Source of the DNA: Chiloscyllium plagiosum
Taxonomy: Eukaryota
NCBI RefSeq assembly: GCF_004010195.1
Contig: NC_057757.1
Coordinates: 5,191,464 to 5,255,463, forward strand
Reading direction: 5' to 3'
Length of the DNA: 64,000 nucleotides
Of the stretch, positions 7,638 to 63,329 are shown piece after piece (within the stretch, counting starts at the first letter, position 1; the number at the start of each line of letters is the position of its first letter). A program made the position numbers and the translations under genes. Under the pieces are notes generated by a model. The model ran no database searches and was not told the DNA's origin. It saw only the letters and a list, made by a program, of their open reading frames with translations.

Positions 7638-7674
7638 ACACCTGATGAAGGAGCGTCGCTCCGAAAGCTAGTGT
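7638..7674 (+). ncRNA. Minimal type I hammerhead ribozyme motif with intact core
   Basis: ACAC / CUGAUGA / A / GGAGC-GUC-GCUCC / GAAA / GC / UA^ / GUGU: 4-bp stem I, 5-bp stem II, palindromic AGCU stem III. Confidence 0.75.
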
Positions 7675-7760
7675 GCTTCCAATTAAATCTGTTGGACTAT
7701 AACCTGGTGTTGTGTGATTTTTAACTTTGTACACCCCAGTCCAACACCGGCATCTCCGAA
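7638..7760 (+). mobile_element. Penelope-like 3' terminus (family B) with hammerhead motif
   Basis: cctgatgaaggagcgtcgctccgaaagcta...ttggactataacctggtgttgtgtgatttttaac; related copies at about 10520, 36430, 41330 and 61070. Confidence 0.75.
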
Positions 7761-7764
7761 TCTA

Positions 7765-8510
7765 AACTAGTATCACCCACCTGCACTTAGCTCATATCCC
7801 TCCAACCTCCCTCCAAACCTTTCCTATTCATAATGATCTAAGTGTATTTTAAACATTGTAACTGTACCTGCATCCATACTTCCTCAGGAAGTTCATTCCA
7901 CACTTGAACCACCCTCTGTGTGAAAAATTTGCCCCTCACGTCCCTCATACCCCTCTCTCCTGTCATCTTAAAAATATGCTCACTAGTCTTGAAATTCCCC
8001 GTCCTAAAGAAAACACACTCACCGTTAACCCTATCTATATTTCCTCATGATTTTAAGAAAACCTATTAAAAGCTGCAGCTCTATGAGGCATCTCCCACTT
8101 TCTGTGTAAAAAACTTTCCCTCACATCACCTTTGAATTTTTCCCCCTTTTACCTCAAACACATGCCCTCTAGTATTAGACAGTTCAACCTCTGGGAAACA
8201 TATTCTGATTGTCGATCCAATCTGTGCCTCGCATAATTTTCTAACCTTGTATCAGGTCTCTGCTCAGCCTCCGCCCCCTCCACAGAAAACAACCCTAGTT
8301 TGTCCAGCCTCTCCTTATAGCTCATATCCTGCAATCCTCTATAGAGAGTTGTAAAACTCACCATGAACTGAAAGAAAAAGAATTCTCCTCATCCTTATCT
8401 TAAATGGAAGACCCCTATTTTTAAACTGTGTCCCTCATTCTCAGCTCTCCTATAAGGGAAAGCATCCTTTCAGCATCCACCCTGTCAAATCCCCTCAGGA
8501 TCTTACGTAT
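7765..8510 (-). mobile_element. Several CR1 LINE 3' fragments
   Basis: Minus-strand GLQDMSYKERLDKLGLFS and CR1 3' end sequence. Confidence 0.75.
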
Positions 8511-8630
8511 ATCCATGGAACATCATGGATACGATTTGGCAGGACAACGATCACATGAACTTGGTGACTTTGGTGCAACTGCAGGATAAAAAAAAAAATG
8601 TTCTAACAGCCAAGTTCAAGCTGCCATCAC

Positions 8631-8830
8631 GAGAAAGTGAGGACTGCAGATGCTAGAGATCAGAATCAAAAAGTGTGGTGCTGGAAAAGCACAGCCGGTG
8701 AGGCAGCATCCGAGGAGCAGGAGAGTCGACTCTTCATTCCTGATGAAGGGCTTATGCTCGAAATGTCGACTCTCCTGCTCCTTGGATGCTGCCTGGTCAG
8801 CTGTGCTTTTCCGGCACCACACTTTTTGAC
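8631..8830. mobile_element. Palindromic PLE-terminus insert (family A) with hammerhead core at 8740-8767
   Basis: Inverted arms; CTGATGA-A-GGGC-TTAT-GCTC-GAAA-TGTC; imperfect TSD tcaagctgccatca / tcaagttgccagca. Confidence 0.75.
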
Positions 8831-8854
8831 TCAAGTTGCCAGCATACTACCAGG

Positions 8855-9050
8855 CCATAAGGCTGCTGTCTCACAAGAAAGAGGCAACTGGTAGTGGTTT
8901 TAAACTGAGGACCAACTCCTCAGGCGAGGGGAGAGGTTGAGTTGGAGAGTCCTTCATGGTACCCTCAGCCAGTTCAGGAATTGAACCCAAACTAGTGGCA
9001 TAATACCTACTACAAACCAGCCATGCAGCCAACTGAACTAACCAACCCCA
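8855..9050 (-). mobile_element. Second tRNA-derived SINE family (same as 50535-50740)
   Basis: Reverse complement begins ggttagttcagttggctg...gggttcaattcc (A/B-box like) and matches the plus-strand copy at about 50535. Confidence 0.6.
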
Positions 9051-9404
9051 ATAATAGTGGAGGAACTCCTGAAGATGAGGTAATCAGGACAGCTGACTTG
9101 TGGGGGCTTCTAAGACTCTAAGGATGCTAGCATGAAGCTCAACATGAAGGCCCCAAATATCCATTATTGTACCAGGGAGACAATAGCTGGCAACAGAGGA
9201 AAATGGTGAACCCAATCGCAGATTGGCATGCACTCCGGCAACAAGCACCAGTGCTGAAAACAACAACCCACAGTGTCACATGTGGATCATGTAGCTGAAC
9301 GCGCAACGATCAGCTTTCACAGCCATTGGGAAAGTTGCCCAAAGCAAAGATATGGATCACATTCAAAACTTCCATGTCTTGTAGATAGGATGCTCACATA
9401 CCCT

Positions 9405-10120: not shown

Positions 10121-11213
10121 ATTTTTTTAAAAATACACTTGATTCAAGTAATGATCTCAATCAGGATCTTGCTGTGCATCATTTGTGTTTGCTGCACCAA
10201 AGTGTGCCATATAAATGCAGGATCTTGTTATGCAAAACCATATGAGCAAAGCACTGGGATTCAACCTGAAAGGATTAGGATTCAAAAGCAGAGTAGCTAT
10301 CATGAACTTGTATGGAAACCACAGGGCTCACTTTGAATAAGGTGCACAGTTCTATTTCTCATTTATTCGTAGATGATCTTATAGATCGTGAAAAGGTTGC
10401 TAAAGATTGGTGATATAGTGAACAGTGAAGAAGGTTATCTAAGATTACAAAGAGATCTCAATTAATTGGTTCGGCCACTTTTGGAATACTGTATGGAGTT
10501 TGGTCACCCTGCTATAGAAGGTGACAAAGAAGCAGCACTCCAAAAGCGTGTGATTTCGTGTAAACCTGTTGGACTATAACCTGGTATCATCTGACTTTGT
10601 TTGCCCCAGTCCAACACCAGCACCTCCACACCTTTAGGAAAGCGACTGGGGACTTTAAAATGATGAAGGCGGTTGGACAGGGTAGATATGAGGAAGGTGT
10701 TACTGCTTGCAGGTGAGCCATCAATCTCAGACAGATTTTAATAAATCCAGGGGAGAGTTCCGCAGAAACCTCATGATCCAGACAGTGGGGAGAATATGGA
10801 ATTCACTCCCACAGTTGAAGCAAATAGTGTCGGTACAGAGGGGAAACTAGATATGAGGGAGAAGAGTAGAGGTGGGGGTATATTGATGGAGTGAGGTGAA
10901 GACCTGTGGGAGGAGACTCATGTGGAACATAAACCCTAATGCAGACTGAGTGAAGAGCTGACAGACTAGCAGTAACGTTACTGGAGAGCTTTAAGTTTAA
11001 TGTTGTGGTGGAGACAGTTCAAATCCCACATAGCAGGAATTTTAATTGAATACGTGTGGGATATAAAGATACTCTTAATAATGGGGACTGTGGCAGCTAT
11101 CATCAGTTGTCAGAAATTCATCTGATTCACCAATGTCCTTGAGGGAAGGAAATCTGCAGTTCTTACCTGTGCTAGCTTATATCTGACTCCAGACCTTTGG
11201 TAATATGGCGACT

Positions 11214-12347
11214 GAAATGGCCCAGCAAGGTACCCAGTTCAAGAGCAATAAGGGCTCAGCAACAACAGTGATGTCTGAAAGAATGTGTATTTTAAAATGG
11301 ACAAGGGAAGTGGAGACGATCAGGGATTTCCAAAAGGAAACCGGGTGGACACTGGAGGGAAATAATCTTGCAGAGGTCACAAGTATAGAGCATGGAGAAT
11401 GTGACTGACTGGATTGTTCTACATGGACTTGATGGTCTGATGCTGCAATGAATGGGGCAGATAAATGCATTCAGAGTGAGGCCTGAACAGTAACATGGAG
11501 TAAATGGATCGAATGGCTTGTTTTGCCCTTATCACTGTGTGTTTCCGTGCTGGAAATGTGTGTGTTGTGCATGTCCACTTGCATCCACTACCACTGGGAG
11601 CCATTAGGGTGTGCTGCAGATTCAGTGTCAACCCATGAAGTTTCCAGGAATCGAAAATGTGCCTTGAAATTCAAGTTCAAGCAATGCCTTGTGCAATGCA
11701 CAAGAGAGAATCCCTGCCAGTCACGGATGGATGCAGCTCTCTGGAGGTGATTAATGTCTTGCTGAGCAGTCGGCTTCACAGAATTGATGTGATTCATAAT
11801 GCAACAGTGACAAGGGCAAAACAAGCCATTCGATCCATTTACTCCGTGTTACTGTTCAGGCCTCACTCTGAATGCATTTATCTGCCGCATTCATTGCAGC
11901 ATCAGACCATCAAGTCCATGTAGAACAATCCAGTCAGTCACATTCTCCATGCTCTATACCTGTGACCTCTGCAAGATTATTTCCCTCAAGTCTGAAAAAT
12001 GTGTTGCTGGAAAAGCGCAGCAGGTCAGGCAGCATCCAAGGAGCAGGAGAATCTAGGCGGAAGATGTGGCGCTCTTCCTCCAGGCGTCGTGTTGCCATGG
12101 CCTGGCGATGGAGGAGGCCAAGGACCTGCATGTCCTTGGCGGAGTGGGAGGGGGAGTCAAAGTGTTCAGCCACGGGGCGGTTGGGTTGGTTGGTGCGAGT
12201 TTCTTCAAGTATCCACCCAGTTTCCTTTTGGAAATCACTGATCATCTCCACTTCCTCTGCCCATTTTAAAATGCATGTTCTTTCAGGCATCACTGTTGTT
12301 GCCGAGCCCTTATTGCCCTTGGACTGCGTACCTTTCTGGGCCACTTC
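11214..12347. repeat. Inverted duplication: arms 11214-11538 and 11804-12347, right arm split by a PLE insert
   Basis: The arms are reverse complements (mirrored ORFs 11205+ and 11934-), separated by a 265-bp spacer. Confidence 0.9.
11992..12200 (-). mobile_element. Penelope-like fragment (GIY-YIG endonuclease C-terminus plus terminus)
   Basis: TNQPNRPVAEHFDSPSHSAKDMQVLGL...RRLEEERHIFRL; flanked by a tcaagt duplication. Confidence 0.8.
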
Positions 12348-13889
12348 CCCTGCCCGCTTTTGGGCATTGAGTTCCAGGTCACTACTACTTGCTGTGTAAA
12401 GGTACATTTTTCCTCATATCCCTACCTTCCCAGAACTTAAATCTGTGGCCCCCTAGTCTGTGTACCATCAGCTAATGGCACATTTCCCATTGTGGAAAGT
12501 GAAAAGCCTCTGATTCTACCCTTACTGCCTAGCCATCTTCAATCTGATATTAAGTAGGATTTTGACCCAGCAATGCTATATGTATCCAAGTCAAATAATA
12601 TTTGTAACTCAGAGGTGAACTTAGATGTGTTGGGGTTACCACGCATATGCTGTTCGTATCTACCATATTGGACTCATTGTCTTCAGCGACTTGACCAAGT
12701 CATGTTCGGCTCTTGATGATGAGGAAGGATATTGGTCAAGACTTTGGAAATTCTGTGGGCTTGGGGTATGTGCTGACAGTTAAGGGAATGGTGTTCCAAC
12801 AGTTTTTGCCTCAACCAGATGGCAGAGAGTGAGCATTCCCCTACCTTGTTTGCAAAGAGGTTTATCCCCCATCGGCCCTCACTCTTGCATCTATAGCCCT
12901 TTGTTTTTGTCACCGTCCTACAGAAAATGAGTTGTATCTTCTGTGGACCCTGTTCCATCCTTTCAAACCTTTCACTTGGTCTCAGTGGGGAGCTGTGGTC
13001 CCAACATCCAGGTTCAAGTCTGGGACTTGAGCATGAAAAATCAAGGCTGACATCCCAGTATGAACTGGGTACCTTGCTGGGCCAATTCAGTCAGCGTATT
13101 ACCATAGGCTTGGAGTCACATGGAGGCTAGCGCAGGTAAGAATGGCAAATTTTCTTCCCTCAAGGAAACTGGTGAATCAGATGGATTTGACAACTGATGA
13201 TAGCTGTCATACAGTCATAGAGATGTACAGCACGGAAACAGACCCTTTGGTCCAACTCGTCCATGCTGACCAGCTATCCCAATCCAATCTAGTCCCACCT
13301 GACCACTGTCACCATTATTAAGAGTTATTCAATTAAAATTCCTGCTATATGGGATTTGAACTGTCTCCACCACACCATTAAACTTAAAGCTCTCCAGTAA
13401 CATTCCCACTAGACGGTCACCTCTTCACTCAGTCTGAATCAGGGTTTATGTTCCACATGAGTCTCCTCCAATAGGTTTTCATCTCACTCCATTAACATAC
13501 CCACCTCTACTCCTCTCCCTCATACCTAGTTTCCTCTTTGCATCGACACTACCTGTCCCGTAGGAGTGCTACACCTTTACTGAAACATTGAAAACTCAGG
13601 CCACAGCTGGTCTCTTAGATGGATATCAAGCAGGAGGTCACAACCCCAACAGACAAGCAAATAGTTTTTAACCTGGTGGTCCCACATAGTGGTCCCAGTT
13701 CTCTGGGAGAGGAGGGAAGGGTCCTTGAAATGACCCCTTGTGTCACAAGGTCACATCAATCAAAGCGAACCCCAACTGGAAAGTCAATGAATGGGGTAGA
13801 GAGGTCATGTTGCAATTAGGGAGTTGGAGAGGAAGGGTTAGAGTCTCCATAGCACTTGACTACTGATCTCATCATTACACTGTTCAGCA

Positions 13890-14440: not shown

Positions 14441-14459
14441 AACTCTGTTGTATCAAAGA

Positions 14460-14803: not shown

Positions 14804-14923
14804 TTGTAATGTAGGTCAACATACCATTTACCTTGCTAACTGCTTGCTTCACCTGCATGTTTGCCTTCAATGACTGGTTTACAAGGTCACCTAGGTCCCT
14901 TTATGTATTAAAACTTCCCAATC

Positions 14924-17243
14924 TGAAATACCTGCACAGAGGTCGGGTCCCATCACCAAGTCACTCTTTATTTACCTGAGTACAGCTCAGGTTAACTGCC
15001 CCAATCAAGAGGCTCATAGTCAATGAGGTCCATCTGGTCCCAATCACTACAGCCCTTCCCCCCCACCCCCAAAGTCCATGATGTAGGCCTGGTAGCTTTC
15101 GCTTGTAGCTTCAATTGCAACGTTGTTGCCCCAGGTCCGGTTCCTCTGACTCGGGTTTGGACACAGATGGTGTGCACCAGACTGTGGCCTGTCTCTTGCA
15201 ACCAGAAAGTCTCAGGAGAGTTTTCTTCTCTTCTTCAGTGGCTTCCATTTAAGACTCTGAAGTTTCCCTGAGACTAGACAGAGAGGGAGCACCTGTGGTT
15301 TCTGCCAGGCCTTCTGGCTGTTCAGAGCGGCCAACTGTGTTTTCCTCCTGTCCTGTTTTCAAGGTAACAGCTTTCAGGTGATCCACATGTTTATTCAGGA
15401 CATTATCATCTATACAAACTTTGTAAGTCATGGGACCTGACTGCATTAACCCTGTCTTGTACCCATACAGGGCCATTTCCAAGGTTCCGGCACTAAACTT
15501 CACCCCTGAATTGTCTCTCTCTCTTGGAGGAGGCATTTGGCTGGCATTGGAGTTCCTATTGCCATTTCATTCCCCTCTCTCGGTCTGGAAATATCAGCTT
15601 TAACCTGATGTCGAGTCTTCTCCCCATCAGTAACTCCGCTGGAGTTATCCCTGTGGTTGAGTGCAGGATGGACCTATAATCGAACAGGAATGGGATAGTT
15701 TGGTCTCAATTGATGCTGTAGGCTGCTTCTTTAAGCCTGCCTTCAATGTTTGGACCGCTCTTTCCACTAGACCATTGGGTGAGGGAAGATATGGAGCTGT
15801 CCTTATGTGCCAAATGCCATTGGACTTGAGGAAACATTTGAATTCGTTGCTGGTAAATGAAGTCCCATTGTCCGTGACTAATACTTCTGGGAGCCCATGT
15901 ATTGTGAATGGTGCTCAGAGCTTCTTCATCATTGTCCCTGAGTTTGCTGAACTAACTTTATGCACGTCCAACCACTTTGAACAGGCATCCACAATGACCA
16001 GGAACATTCAGCCCATGAAAGGATCAGCATAGCCAACATGCAACCGAGCCCAGCATTTACCCAGCTATTCCCACAAATGTGAGGGTGCTGCTGGTGGCAA
16101 CTTTTGTCCTTGTTGGCACTTGGGCACTGCCCCGTCAACACGGCTGTGTCAGCATCTAGGCCTGTCCATCAGACATAGCTTCTTGTCAGCATCTTCATCT
16201 TGGAACCCCTGGATGACCCTGGTGGAAGTCAGCCAGTGTCTGATGGCAACCTTTACTTGGGTCAATCACCCTTGCTTCCCCACAGTAATTGGTGAAAGTG
16301 GGTACTGCAGATGCTGGAGATTAGAGTAGTGCTGGAAAAGCATAGCAGATCAGGCAGCATCCGAGGAGCAGGTAAATCAATGTTTTGGGCAAAAGTCCTT
16401 CATCGGGAATGAGCTCATCCCTGATGAAGGGCTCCTCACAGTAATATGCTATCTGCGGTGATCTGGTCTCACCAGGTCCAAATAGGTTTCAATCCTGGTT
16501 GCGATGACCCTTTTGTTTCCCCCATTACCACCAGCCAAATAAAACTGATAGCATCTCAGGATTCGAGGAGGTTTGAGTTCCCAATATTAGTTAACCAACT
16601 CTGTCAACTCTTGGCAGGTTTTAGCGATTGGTGCCTCTGGGAACATTAAGCCCCTTATAACCGAAAATGCTGTAGGTCCACATGCAGTCAGAGGATTACT
16701 CATTGCTTTTTATCTGCCCCAATGTCATTTGCCTGGTTAAATATTGCATTCTTTCCACGGTCTTCGACAGCAAGATCAAATGAGTCAAGCTTCCCAAATA
16801 AAGGCATGATGCCAGAAATGCTTACCCCAACTCCAAGATGACAGTTGCAAGCCAATGTTCTTCAGGGACGTCCTGTCTTCTCCCGTCACCACTGAAGTAA
16901 CTGCACAGAGACTGGGTCCTGTCATCAAATCATCCTTTATTTACTAGTGCACATTATACTAGCTGTGGCCAGCCAGTTTGGAGTGCTCAACTGGGAAGAT
17001 TCTAATTTCCTGGGATTTTTTTCCCTTACCCCCACACTATTTTTCCCCAGCATCTATGTCATGTTTGTGCAGATGTAGGACAAAGGGCATGGACAATGGG
17101 ACTTCATTTACCAGCAGGGAATTCAAAACTTTATTTGTATTTTCCTGGTTATTTTGGTCAGCCAAGGCTTTTCTGATTGGCCTAGGTTAACAATCCCAGT
17201 TAAAAACTGCATTGTCAATGAGGTCCACCTGGTCACAATCACA
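14924..17243 (-). mobile_element. Internally deleted Gypsy LTR retrotransposon (gag N-terminus and integrase remnants)
   Basis: Similar termini at 14924-15051 and about 16892-17243; PBS-like TGGTGACG; purine tract before the 3' LTR; gag MPLFGKLDSFD from 16807; integrase GLPEVLVTDNGTSFTSNEF..SPNGLVERAVQTLK; candidate TSD CAATC. Confidence 0.8.
16291..16435. mobile_element. PLE-terminus insert (family A) nested in the Gypsy element
   Basis: ctgcagatgctggaga...gcagcatccgaggagcagg...ccttcatcggg followed by the inverted cctgatgaagggc. Confidence 0.7.
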
Positions 17244-17367: not shown

Positions 17368-17700
17368 CTTAGATTAGATTAGATTAGATTAGATTAGATT
17401 ACTTACAGTGTGGAAACAGGCCCTTCGGCCCAACAAGTCCACACCGACCCGCCGAAGCGTAACCCACCCATACCCCTACATTTACCCCTTTTACCTAACA
17501 CTACGGGCAATTTAGCGTGGCCAATTCACCTGACTTGCACATCTTTGGAGTGTGGGAGGAAACCGGAGCACCCGGAGGAAACCCACGCAGACACGGGGAG
17601 AATGTGCAAACTCCACACAGTCAGTCGCCTGAGGCGGGAATCGAACCCGGGTCTCAGGCGCTGCGAGGCAGCAGTGCTAACCACTGTGCCACCGTGCCGC
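17368..17700 (-). mobile_element. Young HE1-type SINE with (AATCT)n tail
   Basis: CpG-rich copy of the family; (ttaga)n at 17368-17400. Confidence 0.9.
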
Positions 17701-18180
17701 TTCTTTACATTGTCCTCACCACTCACAATCCCACCTAGTTTTGCGTCATTCATTCACTGATTCAAATCATTGGTATACATTGTGAATAACTGAGCCCAGC
17801 CTGAAAATGACCCATCACTCTGTTTCCTGTCTCAATTCCAAATCCAAGCCAATATGTTATCCTTAAACCCATGTACTTTGACTTTGCACAATAACCTTTT
17901 ATGTGAGATTTTATCAACAACTTACTGAGAATCCAAATACATCATATCCACTTATTCAGCCCAATCTTTTCAACATCCTCAAAAAAATTCTTAGTTTTGT
18001 CAAAATGATTTCCCTTTCATAAATTCATGTCAACTTCAACTAATATTGATGTTTTCTAAATACCCTGTTATCACATGCTTTCTAACTTTCCCACCTACTG
18101 ATGCTGGACTAACTGGTCTTAATTCTCTGTTTTCTCCTTGCATCCATCTTTAAACAGTGGATTTCCTCCCTGTGGAACTA

Positions 18181-22750: not shown

Positions 22751-23008
22751 TTAATATTTATTTATCCATAATATTTATGGAACAGACAGTTTCACGACTT
22801 GCTAGGTGGCAACCTTCATTTCTGCATAGAAATAGGCAAGGTGCTTATTATGATGTTTTCAATAGGTCACTCAGGACAGTTTGTGGGTCACTGAAGAGAG
22901 TTCAAAGATTACAGCTGCTTGGAGAAAGAAACAGACAGAGACACCGACTCCATGTTAGACAGGGCTGCCATTAGTCGTATTACTGGGAAGGCATCTAAAG
23001 GATGTGGA

Positions 23009-23348
23009 GTTCAGCTGGGACAACACATCCATCCTAGGACAGGCCAAACAGAGACATGCACGGGAATTCCTAGAAGCATGGCATTCCAACCAGAACTCTA
23101 TCAACAAGCACAGTGACTTGGAGCCGATTTATCACCCTCTGAGAAAAAGAATGGGAAATGGCATCACCACAGGAAATGACATCACCACAAGAAGTGACAT
23201 CATCAACCCAAAGAAACCCAAACATATAAACAGAAAGCAGGAATCATCAGCAATGCTTCGTCCGGACGCTCACTGAAGATGTTACCTAGTATGGTGACGA
23301 AACATCTCAACATGAACCTTCCAGCTCAGCGAGCAAACCTACATCCAC
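23009..23348 (+). mobile_element. 5'-truncated Penelope-like element (family C) with hammerhead core at 23273-23306
   Basis: GIY-YIG C-terminus FSWDNTSILGQAKQRHAREFLEAWHS..SINKH; CTGAAGA-T-GTTACC-TAGTAT-GGTGAC-GAAA-CATC; TSD AGGATGTGGA (22999-23008 / 23349-23358). Confidence 0.8.
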
Positions 23349-24239: not shown

Positions 24240-25380
24240 TCAGGAATAACCTGCTCACTGACACTCAGTTTGTGTTGTGCAAGGGTGACTCAGTTCCTGA
24301 GTCATTATTGATGAAGGGCTTATGCCTGAAATGTCGATTCTCTGCTCCTCGGATGCTGCCTGGTCTGCTGTGCTTTTCCAGTGCCGCACTTTTCGATCCT
24401 GAGTCATTACAACCTTGTTTGAAACATAGACAAACAGTTGAACTCCAGCGGTGAGGTACAAGTGACCATGACATAAATGCTGCATTTGGCCAAATGTGGG
24501 ATCAAGACATCCTAGTAAAACTACAATCAATGCGACTCAGGGAGGTGGGACCGAGTCTCCTTTGGTTGGAGTCCAACCTGGCGCGAAGGAAGATGGTCGT
24601 GGTTGTCGGAAGTCAGATATCTCAGTTCCAGGACATTTCTGCTGGAGTTCCTCCAGGTAATATTCTGGCCCAACCATCTTCAGCTGCTTCATCAATGACT
24701 TACTGTCCAACATCAGATCAGAAGTAGAGATGTTTGCTGATGATTGCTCAATGCTACTCCTCAGGTACTGAAATGGCCATGTCCATTTGCAGTAAGACCT
24801 GGTCAACATCTAAGCTTGGGTTGATAAGTGGCAAACAGCATTCATGCCACATAACGGCCATCTCCAAGAAGAGAAAATCACACCTTGACATTTAATGGCA
24901 TTACCATCACGAAACACCCAAATATCCTGGGGGGTTACCATTGACCAGAAATTGAATACAGACCAGCTCTGTGGCTACAGGATCACCTCATAAGCTAGGA
25001 AATCTATGGCAAATAACTCACTTCCTATCTCTCCAAAGCCTGTCTACCATCTATAAGGCACAAATCAGAAGTGTGATAGAATACCCTCCACTTGCCTGGA
25101 TGAATACAACTCAAAAAGCACTTGAGAAACTCAACATTATTCAGGACAAAGCACCCCTTCTTCACTGGCACCCTATCTACACTTCAATATTCACTCTCTC
25201 CAATGCGAGCAGTGAGTACTGGCTACAAGATGCACTGCTGTAACTCACCAGAGGAACAAAAGTAGGAAGCGTATGGGAGCACCACAACCTAAATGGTCTT
25301 CTCAAAGTCAAACACCACCTTGACTGGGAAATCTATTGCATTCTTTTATCATCACCGTTGCAAAAACCTGGAATATTTTC
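24240..25380 (+). mobile_element. Non-LTR retrotransposon RT fragment with a PLE-terminus insert at about 24305-24396
   Basis: SAGVP.G.IL.P, MFADDC and LSTIYKAQIRSVIEY motifs across frameshifts. Confidence 0.75.
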
Positions 25381-28004: not shown

Positions 28005-28205
28005 AGTAGACAAGCATGAGGCTGGAAGAACACGGCAAGCCAGGCAGCATCAGCAGGTGGGGAAGTCAATGTTTTGGGTGTGATCCAGCTTCAGGACCTG
28101 AAACATTGACTTGTCCACCTGCTGATGCTGTCTGGCTTACTGTATTCTTCCAACCTCCTGCTTGTCAACCTTGGTTTCTAGCGTCTGCAGTTTTTTTTGC
28201 CTCAA
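28005..28205. mobile_element. Palindromic PLE-terminus insert (family D)
   Basis: Inverted arms ggctggaagaacac.gcaagccaggcagcatc; ctgaaatac duplicated on both flanks; same family at 58605 and 63330. Confidence 0.65.
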
Positions 28206-28209
28206 GCTG

Positions 28210-43389: not shown

Positions 43390-44819
43390 GTAAGCGGTTT
43401 GGAGTGGTGTTCCCTGGAGAGTTAGTCTTTATTAAACTCACTCACACATACACAGCCCCATTCACTCTCAATCATTTACAGCCACACATTCCCTCACTCA
43501 ATCTCTTTCACCCACTCTTACTCACACATACAAACACACTCACCTAGTCAGTCTCACACACACACTCTTCTTACCTACAGTTATTCTAGTGCTGTCAAAC
43601 TGTGTTTTCAACTGTTGAAGGTATGGCCAATTACCTCTGCCAACTTAATCTTTACAGTTTAATAAAAGCCGATAAAGAGAGACTGTATGGCCTGTTTGCG
43701 GCTTCCAGGCTGTTTTTAAAAAAGACACTTTTTGGGAAGTTTTCCTATGAGAACCCAGCACTGAGCTTTGGACAGGCGGGCTGAGTCCAGATCTGCCAAG
43801 TCTTGCTATTGTTGTGACAATAACAATTTATATTTAGATGACCCATTTCATGGGATTAAATGAGTACTGAGTGCCAAAGTGTCGAGGTGCCAAACAGTGG
43901 GCGAGAAAAGGAAAGAAAAAGATCATTTTTGGAGCTATAAAATCCTGAGGGGAACTTGGCAGGGTGGATGCCAAGATGATATTTTCTCTCCATAGGGGAG
44001 TCTAGGGGGCACACCGTTTAAAACTTGGGTGGGTGGAGATAAGTCAAACATTTTTCTTGCAGAGGGTTGTTAATCTTTGAAGCCCTTTGGCTGAGTCACT
44101 GGATATGATCAAGGCTGAATTGGATAGATTTTTTGCCCCACGAGGGAATCGAGGTTTTGGAGGGCAGACAGGAAAGTGGAGTTGAGGCCACGATCAGATC
44201 AGTCATAATTGTACTGGATGGTACAAACAGCCTACTCTATAGCCTGCAATAAAAATACAGAGTGCTGCAGAAATTCAGCAGGTCTAGTAGCAACTGCAGG
44301 GAGCCAAACAGATTTAACATTTTCAATCCCTTCTTTCAACTCTCATAATCCTAGTTCTTGTGTTCTGATTTATACAAGGCGATCCCAAAGGACTTCTCAA
44401 GTGTATTTTTGGCAGGGTTGTGAAGACTTCAAAGGCTTTTTAGGGTAGATGGAGCGATATATTTGCTTTTCCTTAGAACAGGTTGCTACTCTGAAACCAG
44501 AGGCTATAATAATGAGGAATGCCTCTCCACATCATACGGGATTGATTAGGAGACTCTTTCAGTTTTGCCACCTGCAAAGGAGAGAATTTGAAGGCTTATA
44601 AACAACTTGCTTGGTCTCGTTATACTCTCTTGGCCATTGTGTCCTGGAGTGGCACTCGAATCTGCAGAGGGGGAACATGACCAACGACACATCAAATCCT
44701 GAGGAAGCTTTTTGGGAAAATGATGAATGCGAAGAAGGGTTAGTGCCTGGGGACATCGTTGTGTGGAGAAGCTGAAATTGTTCTCGTCAGAACAGAGAAA
44801 CGATAGAGTCTTTTAGAGT

Positions 44820-45430
44820 CAGAGAGTCATAGAGATGTACAGCACGGAAACAGACCTTCCAGTCCAACTTGTCCATGCCGACCAGATATCCCAACTTAAT
44901 CTAATCCCATTTGCTAGCACTTGGCCCACATCACTCCAAACCCTTCCTATTCATTTACCCATCCAGATGCCTTTTAAATGTTGCAATTGTACCAGCCTCC
45001 ACCACTGGCAGCTCATTCCATTCATGCACCACCCTCTGCGTGAAAAAGTTACCCCTTAAGTCCTTTTTATATCTTTCGCCTCTCACCCTAAACCTACACC
45101 CTTTAGTACTGGACTCCAAACCCCAGGGAAAAGACTGTCTATTTATCCTCGAGATTTTATAAACCTCTAACAGGTCACCCTCAGCCTTTGACACTCCAGG
45201 GAAAACAGCCCCAGCCTATTCAGCCTCTTCCTATAGCTCAAATCCTCCAACCCTGGCAACATCCTTGTAAGTCTTTTCTGAACCCTTTCAAGTTTCACAA
45301 CATCCTTCCGATTGGAAGGAGATCAGAATTCCAAAAGTGGCCTAACCAATGTCCTGTATAGCTGCAACATAACCTGCCAACTGCTATACTCAATGCTCTC
45401 ACCAATAAAGGAAAGCGTACGAAATGCCTT
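44820..45430 (-). mobile_element. CR1 LINE 3' portion
   Basis: FRVRGERYKKDLRGNFFTQRVVHEWNELP; ctatgactct tail. Confidence 0.9.
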
Positions 45431-46880: not shown

Positions 46881-47160
46881 AGAATGCCTCATCCAGCCAT
46901 GGTTGGGGATTGCGCAGAGTTTGGAGGAACTTGCAAGCCTGGACAAAGACCTTTTGAAGTGGGCTTAGCAGGTTGGATGGAGAGCTTGGCGATAGTGGGG
47001 CTAATAAATTTCCACAAGTTCCTGAGCAACCATTCAGGACATCTGCTTTACAGTGGGGTTTAAACGTTTGTAGAATTAGCGGTAGAAAGGAAAGATGTGT
47101 AGAGAGTTAGCAGCTGCATCGGTGCACGAGCAATAGAAATAGGGAATTTATTTAGGAAGA

Positions 47161-47465
47161 CGGTGGCTCAGTGGTTAGCACTGATGCCTCATAGCACCAG
47201 GGACCCAGGTTCAATTCCGGCCTCGGGCAACTGTCTGTACGGAGTTTGCACATTCTCCCCTTGTTTGCATGAGTTCCCTCCGGGTGCTCCGGTTTCCTCC
47301 CACAGTCCAAAGATGTGCACGTTAAGTGAATTGGCCATGCTAAATTGTCCATGGTGTTATGTGCATTCCTCAGAGGAAAATGGGTCTGGGTGGGTTACTC
47401 TTCGATGTGGACTTATTGGGCCAAAGGGCCTGTTTCCACAATGTAGGGAATCTAATCTAATCTAA
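47161..47465 (+). mobile_element. HE1-type SINE
   Basis: Family sequence with aatct tail. Confidence 0.85.
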
Positions 47466-49265
47466 AAACGAACATGAATTTATAATATATCTTCAGGCCA
47501 TCTCATAAGACTGTCTAGCCAAGGAACTCGTGAACATTTCTTTAAAGCATCATGAGTTTTTTTAGCTGACATGGCAGCCACTTGTGACAAGGATATTTTC
47601 TCCTTGTGGAAGCGACTAGGTAAAGGGGACACAGATTAAAGTAAGAGGTCTTATATTTCACATGGAGATGAGGTGGTATTTTTCTTCTGAAAGGATCGTG
47701 AGTCTGTGGAACTCTTCCCCAAGTGTGGGGGAGGCAAAGTCATAGAATATTTCTAAGGCAGAGAAGGTAGATACTTGGCTAACAAGGGAGTTGATGGTTA
47801 TTTGCTGGTGAAATGTGGGGTTGAGATCACAATCAGATCAGCCATGATCTAATTCAATGGTGGTTCAGGCTCAAGGGGCCCAGTGGTTTCTTCTGCTCCT
47901 AATTTGTATGTATATAGGAAGCTTCCATGCAAGTAATTGCTTCTACACATGAAAAGTTTAAGAATGAGAGTGCACAGATTTAAAGCATTTGATGAAAGAA
48001 GCAAAAGTGATGTGGGGGAAAAAAAGGTTTTCTCACAGGAATGACTGAGGACTGTGTTGCTTGAGACTGTGGTAGAAGTAGATCCAATCACTACTTTCAA
48101 GAGTGAATTGGACTATTAACTGAAAAGGAGAATGCACAGGGTTATGAGGAGGTGGGAAAATGTCATTAAATGAACTTGTTTGAAGAGCTGGTACAGACAT
48201 GATGGGTTGAATGGCTTCTCTGTACTGTAACAATTCTGTGTTGCTGTGAAGCTCTGGGCTGGAGTTGTATTTGAACCTGCAGTCACTGGGGAGGTTAACA
48301 ACTGCTCTCTCTGGTGTGCCTGCTCTTCAATTTCTTTCTCCTGTGCCAGAGCAGACACAGAAGCAAAGAGTTCACTATCGATCAATTTATAAATGACTCG
48401 CGCTCTAATGGCTATTGATTCAATGTGTGGAACTAAGATGCTCAGACCAAACACTTCATTTAGCTCATGCCACGAGTCATAGAGTCATAGAGATGTACAG
48501 CATGGAAACAGACCCTTTGGTGCAACCAGTCCATGCCGACCAGATATCCCAACCTAATCTCGTTCCACCTGCCAGCACTAGGGAATGACAGTTGGCTTGA
48601 GTTCACTGGAAATCAGCCAAGTTCTCTGCTGTTGCTTGCTGATGAGGGACCCTGATTTGAAAGTGTCTGCGTGTGGACATGAGATATGGTGGGGATTGGG
48701 CTCGGTTGTTATGTCGCAACTGTGGATTAACCAGTAACTGCCCATATACAAAGTCCACCAGCCCACATGAGCAAGTGAGCTTGGCAGACCAGTTAGACCT
48801 TATCCTGCTGCCAGCCTCCTTAAGCACGTCTCATGACTTTAGTCAAATCCTGTTCAACCTTACATTGAGCCAAAGCAATGCTTTTCTAAAGCTGGAAATT
48901 GCTGGAGAAACTCAGCAGGTCTGTCAGCATCTGTGGAGAGAGAATAGAGTTAATGTCTTGAATCCAGTGACCTTTCTTCAGAGTTCCTTGAGAAATGTTG
49001 TTTTTGTTTCGGATCTTCAACATCCGCAGTTCTTTGTTTTGCTTTTCGAAAGCTGTTGCCATGTCAGAAAAAGTGGCAGCAATCTGTGGACAGTATGTTC
49101 CTGTATGCAGCACTGTAATCAAGAGCAGCTTATTTATTACAGTAATGGTAATTAAGGGATGAATATTGATTGGGATGCCAAAAGAAAATCTCCTAGTTGC
49201 CTACTGGTTCAAGATGGGATGTTTTTTAACATCCTTTTCAGAGACCAGACGGAGCTTCATTTTCA

Positions 49266-50495: not shown

Positions 50496-50534
50496 ATTTA
50501 ATGGCTTAACAGTCCCCTTTCTGCACTATATTTT

Positions 50535-50740: not shown

Positions 50741-52517
50741 ATCTATACTGACTTTACCTTCTAGGTTGCAGAAGGTGCAGGTTGGGGAGATGCTGTCAAA
50801 GAAGTTTGGTGAGTTGCTGCAGTGAACCTTGTTGATGGTATACACTGCTGCAGATGTGCATTGGTGGGGTTGGAAGTGAATGTTGAAGATGGTGGATGTG
50901 GGACCAGCCAAGAGTCCTGGATGGCGTCAAACCTCTTGAGTATTGTTGGATCTACATCCAGGTTAAAGAAGGAGGTTTGAGGATAGCTAGCTTGGGTCTT
51001 ATAGGAAAGAGAAAAGAGGTGAATTAATAAAGATTTAGGTTAGAATTCCAGAGCTCAGGGTATAGGTTATTGTAGACCTAGTCATCAATTGGGGCCACTG
51101 CTAAGTCAGTCTACAGCTCGACGTGAGGAGATGCAGAGAGTAGACACATAGACTAACTCTTTTACTGAATTCACCCTCCTTCCGCGTTTTGCTAATAATT
51201 CAGTCAACAAAGGTTTGGAATCACAAGTGAGAGCTTTTGCCAACACTTTGATCCTGTGTCCTGCTGAAACGCTAGTTTTCCTGTTTTCCAAAGTCACTGA
51301 GGTGAATAGCGCAGCCGCATCCAAGTGGAAGCGAGCTATGCATCAGGAGAAAAGAATTAGAGGATTTCTACTTTTGTACTAATTCATGGAAATGTGCACA
51401 ATATTCACAGTTCTGGCCAAAAATCAGAAGCACCAACACTGCAATTCCCTCAAAGCTATTGCTTCCCAAAACCATTTTAAAGTCAGCAAAGCCCACCCAG
51501 CAATCATCCTCTTATGTGAAATTTAGAAATCACCTTGTGTTTGAAGTAGCAGTTACAAGAGAGAAAAAAATAGGTGCTTCGAAGCCAAGAAAATGTATTG
51601 TGATGATGTCATTAAATGTAAGAGCAGAAATGGCTGAGGTATGGATATCAATACAATCTTGGCAAAGGTTTCAAAAGCATAGTCTGACCAAGACATCCTA
51701 GATACAATATTAGCCCTGCCTGCCCAATGAGAATGGTGTCGTCATGCATTAAAATAACACCACATAGGTATCTTCGTCACTGACTGAATTTCTGCATTTT
51801 CTACAGTGTCAAGGCTCCGAAGTTACAGACGGGCAGAGGGTCTAGTTAGCTGGATCAAAATGTAATTTGAAAATTGTCAACTGGAGGTGTACTTAGGCGA
51901 TTTGGATGTGGAGTTTGACCTGCTCAATTTTTTTCCGTTCATCGAGTTTAGTCTGTCTTCTATGGCTGGATCTGCAGATGTAGCTATTGTCACTTCCTCC
52001 ATCCCTTACCTTGCCACTTCCCAAACCTTTTCACACAGCGTGCCATCAAAATGGAATTCTTGATCCTTGACTGATTCAGCTAAGGCCATGAGTTAATTCA
52101 ATCCACAGGGCAGACTGAATGAAAGATACAACAGAGGAAGAAATGAATCCATGTGGGTGGCTTCTCATGAAAGGGTTACTAGGTAACCTGAGATGAAATA
52201 CAGTGTGTCATGAAATGCTGAGGGACTACGGAAAACTGAGAGTTAGGCAACATTTGCAAGGTCACTGTGAACCTAACACAGTAGAGAAAGCTGGCAAATG
52301 ACCATAAAGAGATATGCTTCAGAGTCTCATCCTTTTTATAGAGGACTGCGTGGTGTGCAATTATAGACAGAATCTTTTACTCCTGTTAGGGAGTTTATCT
52401 TATGAGTAAAAGTTGGACATATTGGGCTGGTATTCACTGGAATTGACAAGAATGAGAGGTGATCTCATTGAGACGTAGAAGATCCTGAGGGGACTTAATT
52501 GGCTTCTGGGACATAGA

Positions 52518-52654
52518 TGAAACTTTATTGCTGGAACAGCACAGCAGGTCAGGCAGCATCCAGGGAACAGGAGATTCGACGTTTCGGGCACAGGCCCTGT
52601 TCCAGCAATAAAGTTTCAACTTTGATCTCCAGCATCTGCAGACCTCACTTTCTC
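52518..52654. mobile_element. Palindromic PLE-terminus insert (family A variant)
   Basis: Perfect 15-bp TSD CTTCTGGGACATAGA (52503-52517 / 52655-52669); inverted tgaaactttattgctggaacag arms. Confidence 0.8.
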
Positions 52655-52664
52655 CTTCTGGGAC

Positions 52665-53605
52665 ATAGAGTCATAGAGAAGTACAGCACGGAAACAGACC
52701 CTTTTGTCCAACTCGTCCATGCCGATTAGATATCCCAACCCAATTTAGTCCCACCTGCCAATGCCCAGCCCATATCCCTCCAAAGCCTTCCTATTCATAT
52801 ACCCATCCAGATGCCTCTTAAATGTTGCAATTGTACCAGCCTCCACCACTTCCTCTGGCAGCCCATTCCACCCATGCACCACCCTCTGCATGAAAAAGTT
52901 GTCCCTTAGGTCTCTTTTATATCTTTCCCCTCTCACCCTAAACCTCTGCCCTCTAGTTCCCGACTCCCCCACCTCAGGGAAAAGACTTTGTCTATTTACC
53001 CTATTCATGCCCCTCATGATTTTATAAACCTCTATAAGGTCACCCCTCAGCCTCTGACGCTCCAGGGAAAACAGCCCCAGCCTATTCAACCTCTCCTTAT
53101 AGCTCAAATCCTCCAAATTTGGCAACATTCTTGTAAATCTTTTTTGAACCTTTTCAAGTTTCACAACATCCTTCTGATAGGAAGGAGACCAGAACTGCAT
53201 GCAGTATTCCAACAGTGGCCTAATCAATGTCCTGTACAGCTGCAACATGACCTCCCAATCCTGTACTCAGTACTGTGACCTATAAAGGAAAGCATACCAA
53301 ATACCTTCTTCACTATCCTATCTACCTGCGACTCTATTTTCAAGGAGCAATGAACCTGCACTTCAAGGTCTCTTTGTTCAGCAACACTCCTTAGGAACTT
53401 ATCATCAAGTGTATAAGTACTGCTAAGATTTGCTTTCCCAAAATGCACCACCTCACATTTATCTAAATTAAACTCCATCTGCCACTCCTTAGTCCATTGG
53501 CTCATCTGACCAAAATCCCATTGTAATCTGAGGTAACCTTCTTCGCTGTCCATTACACTTCCAACTTTGATGTCATCTGCAAACTTACTAACTGTACCTC
53601 TTACT
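52665..53605 (-). mobile_element. CR1 LINE 3' portion
   Basis: ORFs 53224-53640 (SKFADDIK, FNLDKCEVVHFG) and 52745-53248 (LIRPLLEYCMQFWSP). Confidence 0.95.
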
Positions 53606-53734
53606 AGAACTGGGTGACTGAAAACATTTAAGACAAACATAGAAAATTTCTTTCTCTCAAAAGATCGTCAGTCTGTGCAATTCTCTTCCCAAATGTAATA
53701 GAAACCACATCTTTGAATATTTTAAGAGAAGACT

Positions 53735-58604: not shown

Positions 58605-58772
58605 TTAAAAAAACTGTAGATGCTGGATTCCAAGGTAGACAAGCAGAAGGCTGGAAGAACACAGCATGCCAGGCAACGTCAGGATTGAAGAAGGGTTACA
58701 CCCGAAATGGTAACTTCTCCACCTCCTGATGCTGCCTGGCTTACTGTGTTCTTCTAGCTTCCTGGTTGTCTA
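58605..58772. mobile_element. Palindromic PLE-terminus insert (family D), degenerate hammerhead
   Basis: TTGAAGA-A-GGGT-TAC-ACCC-GAAA at about 58685-58707; inverted arms. Confidence 0.65.
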
Positions 58773-59689
58773 TCCCAGAGCAAGAGCCAACTAGTTGACC
58801 TATGAGGGGGCAAATTTACCAAATGATCCAATAATGTCCATACTGCTTTGTTTGTTCTTCCCAGAAATGTCTTATCAACTGCAAAGGGATTACACAATGG
58901 TTACCTCTGCTGGGTAGAAACCTGGAAGACAGGAATGGGTGGAGGCCATTCAGCCCATTGAGCCTGCTCCAGCATTCACACATATCATGGCTGATCATCA
59001 ACTTCTTTACCATTTTTCCCATATTCCTTGGTGTCATAGTATTACAAAGTCTATCAACTTCAGTCTTGAATCTACTTCAGTAGACCTCCAGGGTAGACAA
59101 CTCCAAACATTTATCCCTCTGAGTGAAAATAATTATCCCTATTTCAGTCCCAGGTGGCCTGACTCTTACTCTGAGACTGCCTCCTAATCTTTGACTGCAC
59201 CGAGCCTGAGGAAACATCCTTCCTGCATCTACCTTGACTGTAAGAATATTGTATGTTTCTCAGAGACTATCACATATTCAAAAACGTGCACACAAGATCT
59301 ACCTCTTCCCCCACCCCTCACTCTATAGTCTGATACATTTAAGCAATGAGTCATTGGTGAACATTGACCTGAAAGGTTCAAAAACTCTGATCTGCCAGGA
59401 GTCAGCTGCTTTGCAGTAGGTTTAGCTCAGTTGATCTTGGCAGAAATTCAGTCAGGGTTCCCACTCCTCATGGCCTTTTAGACTAACAGGGAAGTGCCAT
59501 GTATGGCTATCAGATGATCGACATCTGGCAAGGACCTCACAAAACAAAAGTATGGTGAGGACCGAATTTGCGCAATCGAAAATAAAAACAGAAGGAGCTG
59601 GAGAAATTCAGCCAGTTTGGCAGCATCTCTGTAGAGAGGAACAGAGTTAATGTTTTGAGTCCAATATGACTCTTTTAGAGTAATAACGC

Positions 59690-60440
59690 TGTAGAGCACA
59701 GAAACAACTCCTTTGGTCCAACTCATCCATGCTCACCAGATATCCTAAATTAATTTAGTCGCATTTGCCATATCCCTCCAAACCCTTCCTATTCATATAC
59801 CCATCCAGATGCCTTTTAAATGTAATAAATGGACCTGCCTTCACCATCTCCTCTGGCCGCTCATTCCATACATGTACCACCTTCTGCGTGAAAAAGTTGC
59901 TCTTTAGGTCCCTTTTATATCTTTTCCCTCTCATCTTATACTAATGCCCTCTAGAACAAAAAGCAAAGAAAATTTACAGCCCAGGTACAGGCCTTTTGGC
60001 CCTCCAAGCCTGAGCCGAACCAAATGTACTGTCTAAACCTGTCGGTCAATTCCTAAGCATCTGTATCCCTCTGCTCCCCACCTACTCATGCATCTTTGCA
60101 GACACATCTTAAATGAATCTCCCGTGTCTGCCTCTACCACCCCTGCTGGCAACGCGTTCCAAACACCCACCACTCTCTGTGTGAAGTACTTGCCGCGTGT
60201 ATCCCCCTTAAACTTTCCACCTCTCACCTTGAATGCGTGACCTCTCGTTATTGAATCCTTCTACTCTTGGACTTTCCTACCGTGGAAAAATGACCTTGGC
60301 TAATGACGCTATCCATGCCCCTCATGATTTTATAAATCTCTATAAAGGTCACCCCTCAGCCTCCAATGCTCCAGGAAAATAGTCCCAGCCCATTCAGCCT
60401 CTCCCTGTAGCTCAAACCCTTCAACCCTGGCAACTTCTGA
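59690..60440 (-). mobile_element. Nested CR1 LINE 3' fragments
   Basis: RGGKFKGDTRGKYFTQRVVGVWNALP and CR1 3' UTR. Confidence 0.85.
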
Positions 60441-60787
60441 ACTTATGACTTTAGCGGAATCTTTGTCAAGCCCAGGCGAATTTGAGGCGGGACTCTGCTT
60501 TTGACCTCACCCTCGAGATGTCCCATTCACCTCAAATGCCACCACACTTCGCAGGACTGACCGATTTTCCCTAAGAAGTTCCAGGTGTTCTATCCAGTGT
60601 ACACACCGTGGGAAGTGGCCCAAAGCAGATCCCACACTCCCATCCCAGTGGCAGTCAGTTTGACGAAGATAATCATTACTGTTAGAAATGAGTAGCTAAT
60701 AAGTAAAGTAGCCAGTCCATTTGTATCCCTCCAACTGGGCAGCCTGTGCCACTTCAGAATCTCACTCCCCTGGCCTCTGCTCCTCTG

Positions 60788-60990
60788 AGAGAAAGTGAGG
60801 ACTGCAGATACTGGAGATCAGAGTTGAGAGTGTGGTGCTGGAAAAGCACAGCAGGTCAGGCAGCATCCGAGTAGCAGCAGAATCGATGCTTTGATTCCTG
60901 ATGAAGAGCTTATGCCCAAAACATCGATCCTCCTGCTCCTCAGATGCTGCCTGACCTGCTGTGCTTTCCCAGTGCCACACCTTTCAACTT
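60788..60990. mobile_element. Palindromic PLE-terminus insert (family A)
   Basis: Inverted arms; core CTGATGA at 60898 with GAAA mutated to AAAA. Confidence 0.75.
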
Positions 60991-61068
60991 TGTCCTTTTG
61001 CCTATAGTGGCAGTATAAAGAATATGGGCGGAAGGAAAACAAGACAGAAGTTCACCAGTGCCAGGATG

Positions 61069-61293
61069 TACAAAGTTAAAAATCATACAACAGCAGGTTA
61101 TAGTCCAACAGGTTTATTTGGAAGCACTAGCTTTTGGAGCGTTGCTCTTTCATCAAGTGGTTGTTGAAGGTGTTGAAGGAGCAGCGCTCCGAAAGCTAGT
61201 GCTTCCAAATAAACCTGTTGGCCTATAACCTGCTGTGGTGTGATTTTTAACTTTGCACACCCCAATCTAACATTGGCACCTCCAAATTATGAT
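61069..61293. mobile_element. Palindromic PLE-terminus insert (family B)
   Basis: 10-bp TSD TGCCAGGATG (61059-61068 / 61294-61303); two opposed, mutated hammerhead cores. Confidence 0.8.
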
Positions 61294-62187
61294 TGCCAGG
61301 ATGGAATGCCATTCTTTTTGAGAACATCTTTCTAAGTGACTGTGCTGAAATGAAGATGACTCATGTTACTGTTCCATTGCTCAGACAGCTTTATCAGATT
61401 CCACTTCCACTATTGTTGTGAAAACAGTTAGTGGCACTGTCAAAATAGCTGAGTGAGAAATCTCACATCAGTATGTCAAGCATTTGCATGATAACATCCC
61501 TCACAGTCATTTGTCAGCTCTGGATTTTAATGAAACGACTGCTTTTATTTATTTATGTAAATCCCCAAAGCAGACTAATAGCTCCTCATTTGCTGTCTTT
61601 AAAGTTATTCATCTATCAAGTAATCTGTGGGAGGCACACTCCTCAGGAATGTGTCTTTTCATAAGTGCTTTAGGGGTTTGTATTCAGGCACCGGTGGTGG
61701 AGGTTTGATATACAAGGGCTCTGGATTAGTGGTGCTGGAAGAGCACAGCAGTTCAGGCAGCATCCAAGGAGCTTCGAAACCTTCATCAGGAATAAAGGCA
61801 GTGAGCCTGGAGCATGGAGAGATAAGCTAGAGGAGGGTGGGGGTTTGGCCGAACTGGTCCTCACCCTTAACAATTTCTCCCACTCCCTCCAGACCAAAGG
61901 GGTAGCCATGGACACACGTATGGGCCCCAGCTGTGTCTGTCTCTTTGTTGGCTACGTAGAACAGTTGATCTTCCGTAATTACACTGGCACCACTCCCCAC
62001 CTCTTCCTCCGCTACATTGATGACTGCATTGGTGCCACCTCATGCTCCCGCAAGGAGGTTGAGCAATTCATCAACTTCACCAACACATTCCACCCTGACC
62101 TTAAATTTAACTGGACCATCTCTGACACCTCCCTCCCCCTCCTGGACCTCTCCATCTCCATCAGTGACGACAGACTTGACACTGACA

Positions 62188-63033
62188 NNNNNNNNNNNNN
62201 NNNNNNNNNNNNNNNNNNNNNNNNNNNNNNNNNNNNNNNNNNNNNNNNNNNNNNNNNNNNNNNNNNNNNNNNNNNNNNNNNNNNNNNNNNNNNNNNNNNN
62301 NNNNNNNNNNNNNNNNNNNNNNNNNNNNNNNNNNNNNNNNNNNNNNNNNNNNNNNNNNNNNNNNNNNNNNNNNNNNNNNNNNNNNNNNNNNNNNNNNNNN
62401 NNNNNNNNNNNNNNNNNNNNNNNNNNNNNNNNNNNNNNNNNNNNNNNNNNNNNNNNNNNNNNNNNNNNNNNNNNNNNNNNNNNNNNNNNNNNNNNNNNNN
62501 NNNNNNNNNNNNNNNNNNNNNNNNNNNNNNNNNNNNNNNNNNNNNNNNNNNNNNNNNNNNNNNNNNNNNNNNNNNNNNNNNNNNNNNNNNNNNNNNNNNN
62601 NNNNNNNNNNNNNNNNNNNNNNNNNNNNNNNNNNNNNNNNNNNNNNNNNNNNNNNNNNNNNNNNNNNNNNNNNNNNNNNNNNNNNNNNNNNNNNNNNNNN
62701 NNNNNNNNNNNNNNNNNNNNNNNNNNNNNNNNNNNNNNNNNNNNNNNNNNNNNNNNNNNNNNNNNNNNNNNNNNNNNNNNNNNNNNNNNNNNNNNNNNNN
62801 NNNNNNNNNNNNNNNNNNNNNNNNNNNNNNNNNNNNNNNNNNNNNNNNNNNNNNNNNNNNNNNNNNNNNNNNNNNNNNNNNNNNNNNNNNNNNNNNNNNN
62901 NNNNNNNNNNNNNNNNNNNNNNNNNNNNNNNNNNNNNNNNNNNNNNNNNNNNNNNNNNNNNNNNNNNNNNNNNNNNNNNNNNNNNNNNNNNNNNNNNNNN
63001 NNNNNNNNNNNNNNNNNNNNNNNNNNNNNNNNN
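62188..63033. other. Assembly gap (846 N)
   Basis: Run of N. Confidence 1.
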
Positions 63034-63113
63034 CCCAATGTACTCTCTGCTACTTTCTCCCCACCCCCACCCTCCTCTAGCTTATCTCTCCACGCTCCAG
63101 ACTCACTGCCTTT

Positions 63114-63149
63114 ATTCCTGATGAAGGGCTTTTGCCCGAAACGTCGATT
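63114..63149 (+). ncRNA. Minimal hammerhead ribozyme motif with intact core
   Basis: CUGAUGA / A / GGGC-UUUU-GCCC / GAAA / CG / UC^; palindromic ACGU stem III; GUC triplet; weak stem I. Confidence 0.7.
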
Positions 63150-63329
63150 TCGAAGCTTCTTGGATGCTGCTTGAACTGCTGTGCTCTTCCAGCACCACTA
63201 ATCCAGAATCTGGTTTCCAGCATCTGCAGTCATTGTTTTTACCTCATACGAGGGCTCTGGTTTATCCTGAACTTGTTTACTGTAGACCACTGTCACAGTG
63301 GCATTTCAAAGCCTGCTATTTCACAGATC

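Follow-up and report, generated by a model that had tools for sequence, protein, structure and literature searches.

Do the hammerhead-like motifs crowded into one stretch of a shark genome form a working complement of ribozymes, or are they what transposition has left behind? The stretch, hereafter the window, comprises 64,000 nt of Chiloscyllium plagiosum (assembly GCF_004010195.1, contig NC_057757.1, positions 5,191,464-5,255,463 of the forward strand), in which a first-pass annotation had described a dense, multi-family population of minimal hammerhead ribozymes on the termini of Penelope-like elements (PLEs). Our analysis points, with a probability of roughly 85%, to four or more PLE families whose terminal repeats hold minimal type I hammerhead sequences, and whose short, mostly broken insertions probably had capped element RNA that was still uncut as their template. 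The motif class is already known: minimal type I hammerheads in the pseudo-long terminal repeats (pLTRs) of metazoan PLEs, with the extra nucleotide after A9, the palindrome and covarying families, are described by Cervera and De la Pena 2014 (PMC4209133). The present work adds a controlled count across the genome, a neutrality test matched for base type, and controls from within the same family for the G found at copy junctions.

Scanning both strands for motifs in which CUGANGA and GAAA are exact, a single nucleotide is added and stem II has 4 or more pairs gave six matches in the window and none in each of eight dinucleotide shuffles, while permitting one core mismatch gave ten matches against 0-6 per shuffle, all ten belonging to identified families. 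An additional copy at 39928 has both boxes exact and a broken stem II, which places it outside the stem-II-filtered scan and brings the window totals to seven copies with both boxes exact and 11 when up to one core mismatch is accepted. The annotated figure of at least ten CUGANGA...GAAA motifs thus stands for the near-exact class and not for the exact one. A search with family tails, decayed relics included, returned 28 window matches. Rfam misses the motif entirely, with no hammerhead among the 19 window matches at E<=10.

Stem II and tail together define four groups, namely A (GGAGC), B (GGGC, with several subfamilies), C (GUUACC) and D (GGGU). Each stem II type first described could be located (GGAGC/GCUCC at 7642, GGGC/GCCC at 63118, GUUACC/GGUGAC at 23273 and GGGU/ACCC at 58685), but in the GGGU copy both stem III and the core are broken. 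An extra nucleotide after A9, claimed for every core, is present in all 11 window copies; in 762 kb it lies between A9 and G10.1 in 78 of 84 exact-core matches and in 53 of the 53 with a palindromic stem III. The G10.1-C11.1 pair is present as well. This palindrome, A-N-N-U before H17 and without a helix III, reads ACGU in families B, C and D and AGCU in A, and stem I has 2-4 pairs, at least two of them contiguous in 48 of 61 intact copies. Four window copies are intact throughout, in boxes, stem II, palindromic stem III and NUH triplet (7642, 32437, 41469 and 63118), and the others carry a damaged core base, stem II or palindrome. Three exact or near-exact copies have lost the palindrome to a CpG-type change (8740 AUGU, 23273 ACAU, 24308 AUGU). 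Genome-wide, every one of 12 family D copies examined has a U-ending cleavage triplet (GUU), as do many copies of family C.

The placement on PLE termini was borne out by linkage to open reading frames (ORFs). At locus L207, an ORF matching RVT_1 (E 2.8e-6) and GIY-YIG (E 6.5e-4), both slightly below the Pfam gathering cut-off, has a CxxC linker and is followed 366 nt downstream by a family B motif; an ORF joining reverse transcriptase (RT) to a C-terminal GIY-YIG was seen for family B only. The RT fragment in the window (61845-62186) is 87% identical to the L207 ORF, and by tblastn the ORF pieces upstream of family A motifs are 37-42% identical to it and a piece upstream of one family D motif 31%. 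A PDB sequence search with the ORF returned no hits. Family C, downstream of a different coding fragment for which Pfam gave no matches, is a putative member of the Poseidon clade, judging by a C-terminal motif. As in the Poseidon element of the anole, PAc (Frangieh et al. 2024, PMC11167929), its stem II begins with an ATG. The other three families, A, B and D, appear Neptune-like, judging from the linker motif in L207 for B and the 31-42% tblastn identity for A and D; RT, linker and C-terminal GIY-YIG are defining traits of Neptune/Nematis-type PLEs according to Craig et al. 2021 (PMC8557442).

The motif lies in the 3' repeat, downstream of the RT-endonuclease ORF, and is placed in the 5' repeat as well, preceding the ORF, because at 5 of 15 loci picked by the N-terminal ORF the D-type repeat runs on into shared sequence. 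The 5'-truncated Neptune-type element at 61709-63260 (+) shows the textbook PLE layout, with a target duplication, an inverted terminal arm, the RT fragment and a 3' pLTR holding an intact hammerhead (63118-63145, +; GGGC/GCCC, ACGU, C) and a long tail to ~63245. An assembly gap (62189-63033) lies within this element, the sole RT-bearing insertion of its kind in the window, and elsewhere in the genome the long open frames of the family are mostly assembly gaps. Traits of endonuclease-bearing PLEs recur among the short copies, which show an inverted arm (in 66 of 102 truncated B copies, by motif match), bimodal 3' ends and target duplications. Past the tail, no shared continuation was found among 55 B1-type, 13 B3 and 20 A copies, overlapping loci aside.

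The genome-wide abundance predicted by the first-pass annotation was confirmed. A family-agnostic pattern matched 166,323 times in 3.556 Gb, against 246 for a reversed control pattern, and exact family patterns gave 16,037 matches for B3/B4, 10,677 for A, 14,098 for C and 722 for D, with 0 for each control. In 120 evenly chosen 10-kb pieces drawn from larger contigs only (1.148 Mb without N), 61 structurally intact motifs and 333 tails were found, the latter one per 3.4 kb, extrapolating to ~190,000 motifs and about a million tails. The annotated density of one motif per 5-6 kb therefore describes near-exact motifs, intact ones occurring about once per 16 kb in the window and once per 19-21 kb genome-wide. 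Published counts found are ~4,000 minimal hammerheads in the coelacanth and ~9,000 in Xenopus tropicalis (PMC4209133) and 126,247 canonical hammerhead motifs in the axolotl (PMC7229834). The count of 166,323 in 3.56 Gb is above the highest of those found, in a comparison that is rough since the descriptors differ. A literature search that covered few subscription papers, and one preprint by its text but not by its supplements, which include one chondrichthyan genome, found no paper counting these motifs in a shark, and supplement file 2 of PMC4209133 contains no shark term.

The first-pass annotation took covariation among families as a sign of selection on ribozyme structure. Stems I, II and III do covary: across seven subfamilies stem I has C-G, U-A or A-U as its innermost pair, stem II is GGGC, GGAGC, GGGU or GU(U/C)ACC, and stem III is ACGU or AGCU. 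Dispersed copies behave differently, their core mutating at the rate of the adjoining tail. In 70 copies that reach well upstream, 37 core changes were counted against 38.7 expected from base-matched tail positions, and in a 150-copy set 86 against 98 expected; G12, the general base, which lies within a CpG, is changed in 16 of the 70. Covariation between families combined with neutral decay of copies places the selection on the replicating source elements and not on a host ribozyme complement.

The ends of the copies bear on the template from which they were made. Family B 3' ends cluster at ~+54 to +65 and at +97 to +99 from the predicted cut site, and those of family A near +55 to +62 and +93, matching the two internal priming sites reported in the tail of the anole element (PMC11167929). 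For the 5' ends, 139 of 200 family B copies were used, 61 having been dropped for low identity, short match or N. Forty-eight of the 139 begin in -36..-29, 42 are spread over -28..-4 and two fall in -45..-37; of the remainder, 37 begin farther upstream, eight downstream, and two within -3..+3 of the cut site itself. The predominant start zone thus lies 0-8 nt upstream of the core, and the modal start, -32, is the A of a pyrimidine-A motif that resembles an initiator. So few starts at the cut site, with a pile-up just upstream of the core, indicate that the dominant template was uncut; the anole element, too, was copied in vitro mainly from uncut RNA (PMC11167929). An intron ending at the pile-up was considered and ruled out, there being no AG at that position. 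Between ~+20 and ~+50 the tails of families B and D have a block in common, with the look of a branch point, a pyrimidine tract and an AG, that may serve in splicing or protein binding.

A further clue to the template is the base that precedes the start. Of the exact B1 copies genome-wide, 15,396 still follow the element at -33 and 5,724 have a base foreign to it there, and in junction counts made by hand in contig order the extra base at the family B start was G in 65 of the first 100 matches listed, against 37 at a control position (p=1e-4). At the family A start, a position predicted from a TATAAA 30 nt upstream ahead of the G count, it was G in 77 of the first 100 matches listed against 15 at the control (G:A ratio, p=3e-4). 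An untemplated G has been recognized as a copied cap in L1 (PMC9341517); a literature search, in which few subscription papers were covered, found no report of a cap G at PLE 5' ends.

Several results weigh against copying from capped, uncut RNA or against neutral decay of the motif. With T set aside, the G excess in family B has p=0.03, that of family A remaining at p=3e-4, and 13 unbiased sampled copies ending exactly at -32 carry 5 G, 4 C and 4 A, with no G excess. When 21 G cases in 30 loci were inspected, the G was also present in the target duplication in eight, extended the inverted arm in six and lacked a template in seven. In family A the 5' ends scatter, with 16 of 51 inside -45..-29, and family C showed no 5'-end pile-up near the motif in the sample. 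RNA reads with loose ends at -32 number 78, are of mixed sequence and only repeat genomic junctions. Minimum-energy folding gave the hammerhead shape for one of the four intact window copies, and cofolding of two copies gave a minimum-energy structure other than a dimeric hammerhead, such folding being uninformative on tertiary fold. Finally, without base matching the family B core seemed conserved (7/436 changes against 109/2187 in the tail, p=0.0008), an appearance caused by composition and subfamily mixing; after base matching the difference is gone, save for A in the 150-copy set (p=0.03).

The junction results above leave room for a possible, if doubtful, alternative, in which the same PLE stubs owe their 5' pile-up to an RT that stalled, or to ends that were trimmed, at the folded motif, or else to self-priming on an antisense template, and their extra G to microhomology instead of a cap. 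Microhomology does account for part of the extra G, as a template in the target or inverted arm is available for 14 of the 21 inspected cases; the unbiased copies lack the excess, and antisense self-priming has been proposed for head-to-head junctions in PMC3846280. Stalling or microhomology sits less easily with a start density that falls about tenfold upstream of -36, with a G excess that is position-specific in two families under same-family controls, and with a family A position that was predicted before counting; under cap copying, too, a cDNA ending in C would be expected to seek out G partners in target or arm.

That the dispersed motifs are a host-selected, working complement, cleaving the transcripts that run through them, we regard as most improbable despite the ~190,000 structurally intact motifs and the 2,471 family reads, on both strands, in one RNA run. 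Only 60 of 328 sampled termini are intact and 268 are not, the core decays as fast as the tail, and the shortest distance between two intact motifs on one strand is 807 nt among the 61 motifs of the 120 sampled pieces. Inverted arms are common in truncated B copies, and three inverted pairs in the window fold as long hairpins of -133 to -140 kcal/mol in which the motif is buried. Single minimal motifs were uncleaved in vitro and dimers cleaved weakly (PMC4209133), and eight of nine Xenopus dimers were not cleaved (preprint 10.64898/2026.07.22.740005). On these grounds of neutral decay, few intact termini, wide spacing and buried motifs, the claim of a very large genome-wide ribozyme complement is right about number, given 166,323 matches against 246, and overstated about ribozymes. 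It is also very unlikely that the stubs are non-autonomous retrozymes spreading through self-cleaved circular RNA, even though pLTRs gave rise to the retrozymes of animals, and one chondrichthyan genome contains such retrozymes (same preprint). Among the 61 intact motifs of the sampled pieces there is no short head-to-tail spacing, though tandem arrays may exist elsewhere in the genome; the copies are ragged at the 5' end, stop at two fixed 3' positions and show target duplications, and starts at the cut site number just 508 against 334 at +4 and 249 at -2, at most about twofold over their neighbours. The dispersed motifs are, instead, a fossil record of transposition.

The motifs are predicted from sequence to self-cleave after H17, yet cut-site starts that reflect cleaved templates are at most a small minority. 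Read by eye, most of 30 loci with such starts are inverted-arm junctions with GA/GGA microhomology, and some are small deletions. In the RNA run with 2,471 family reads there was, family A aside, no pile of ends, the polyA single-cell library being one that cannot show cut ends, and a second raw-read run contained no family reads. These observations bear on the role of the PLE hammerhead, which cleaves poorly and, in the anole element, is protein-assisted and dispensable for insertion in vitro (PMC11167929). The copy ends provide in vivo-derived evidence that the usual template was uncut and probably capped, together with exact predicted start positions of -32 (B) and -37 (A).

Under a capped, uncut template, transcription would begin at an initiator a few bases before C3, and reverse transcription would prime within the tail, where in vitro work on the anole element places priming, pass the uncut motif to the cap and copy the cap G. 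Two such cDNAs made from opposite target strands may then join head to head. Cleavage of the motif itself would be slow, would require a dimer or help from the element's protein, and would be confined to the small number of source elements that are full or tandem; it is there, to judge from the literature, that selection would keep the motif. A wider synthesis can be put forward tentatively, in which no hammerhead population counted so far is denser than this one, at ~47 exact-core motifs per Mb, and its approximately one million termini record a Neptune-type transcription start 4-8 nt before the core and cap-first copying of uncut RNA. The hammerhead would then form the very 5' end of the mRNA, and its cleavage might shed a capped leader of ~32-37 nt, acting as a decapping switch that withdraws the RNA from translation or commits it to circularisation, and not as an insertion requirement.

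Set beside known systems, these elements differ from the minimal hammerheads of PMC4209133 in the short stem II (4-5 bp) of families A, B and D, as well as in number. Like Anolis PAc, they have two 3' ends ~35-40 nt apart (the "tail") with the motif upstream of them, and the extension of both target strands in vitro from uncut RNA as template (PMC11167929) fits the stubs described here. That study is biochemical and, in the text consulted, reports neither a pile-up of 5' ends nor a cap G for genomic copies; unlike PAc, families A, B and D appear to be Neptune-like. With Neptune-clade PLEs they share the RT, a Zn-finger-like linker and the C-terminal GIY-YIG, together with 5' truncation, an inverted 5' copy and an optional 30-40 bp tail (PMC8557442), putative membership being judged here by the linker motif. 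Animal non-LTR retrozymes (PMC7229834; preprint 10.64898/2026.07.22.740005) are alike in having type I hammerheads, very high copy number and a relation to pLTRs, but their motifs are canonical, tandemly repeated and accompanied by circular RNAs, whereas the motifs here are minimal, dispersed and not tandem.

Within the window, family A is represented by a stub at 7638-7762 (+) with an intact hammerhead (7642-7670; GGAGC/GCUCC, AGCU, H17=A, predicted cut 7670/7671) and a long tail, and by two head-to-head pairs. In the pair at 41327-41549 the + core (41469-41497) is intact, the - core (41444-41416) has A6 changed and the hairpin reaches -137 kcal/mol; in that at 61064-61287 both cores are broken. 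Decayed family A-like relics lie at 10527-10628 (+, core broken) and 36426-36535 (-). Family C is present as a coding fragment followed by a hammerhead (22959-23346, +; motif 23273-23306) with GUUACC/GGUGAC, an extra U and a broken stem III (ACAU). Family D comprises relics at 28006-28287 (-), where the core at 28287-28258 has G5 changed and a second D-type inverted pair occupies 28006-28197, a relic at 48916-48982 (-) with a broken GAAA box, and a stub at 58607-58772 (+) with GGGU/ACCC at 58685-58711 and both C3 and stem III broken.

Family B copies are more varied. The head-to-head pair at 8660-8829 (+) has an exact + arm core (8740-8767) with the palindrome lost (AUGU) and forms a single long hairpin of -133 kcal/mol, and the pair at 32358-32560 (+), flanked by a 12-bp target duplication, has an intact + arm (32437-32464) with a weak stem II (two G-U), a broken - arm core and a hairpin of -140 kcal/mol. 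Further pairs lie at 52512-52613 (-; subfamily B2, inverted, 5' core box missing) and 60789-60984 (+; G12 changed, stems II and III broken). A stub at 24302-24396 (+) bears a 13-bp direct duplication on its flanks, with C3 changed and stem III broken, a second at 39924-40024 (+), both boxes exact and stem II broken, starts at -32 from the cut site, and a relic with an inverted arm (16294-16412, -) has U4 and G12 changed. At 11986-12413 (-), the first base of a family B tail coincides with the predicted cut site (12053), and the tail adjoins, in matching orientation, a fused coding fragment that by eye, without a Pfam match, resembles an endonuclease C-terminus; this copy could reflect a template jump from cut RNA, or a deletion. 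Head-to-head arms also attract Rfam matches to microRNA precursors below the gathering score (61097-61227, 63375-63485, 28029-28147 and 32382-32488), and such hairpins could feed small-RNA silencing.

The window has other features besides. Repeated RT-like coding fragments and 3' ends, which resemble CR1-type long interspersed elements, occur at 6440-7394, 44816-45333, 52660-53667 and 59670-60248. An abundant dispersed repeat of 200-300 bp, found on both strands (4197-4545, 17386-17709, 47160-47465 and others), is unrelated to the hammerhead families. A tandem array with a 47-bp period spans 4716-5678 in at least 16 overlapping register copies, and an uninterrupted ORF at 3011-3562 (-) matches Rpp20/POP7, an RNase P/MRP subunit (PF12328, E 3e-23).

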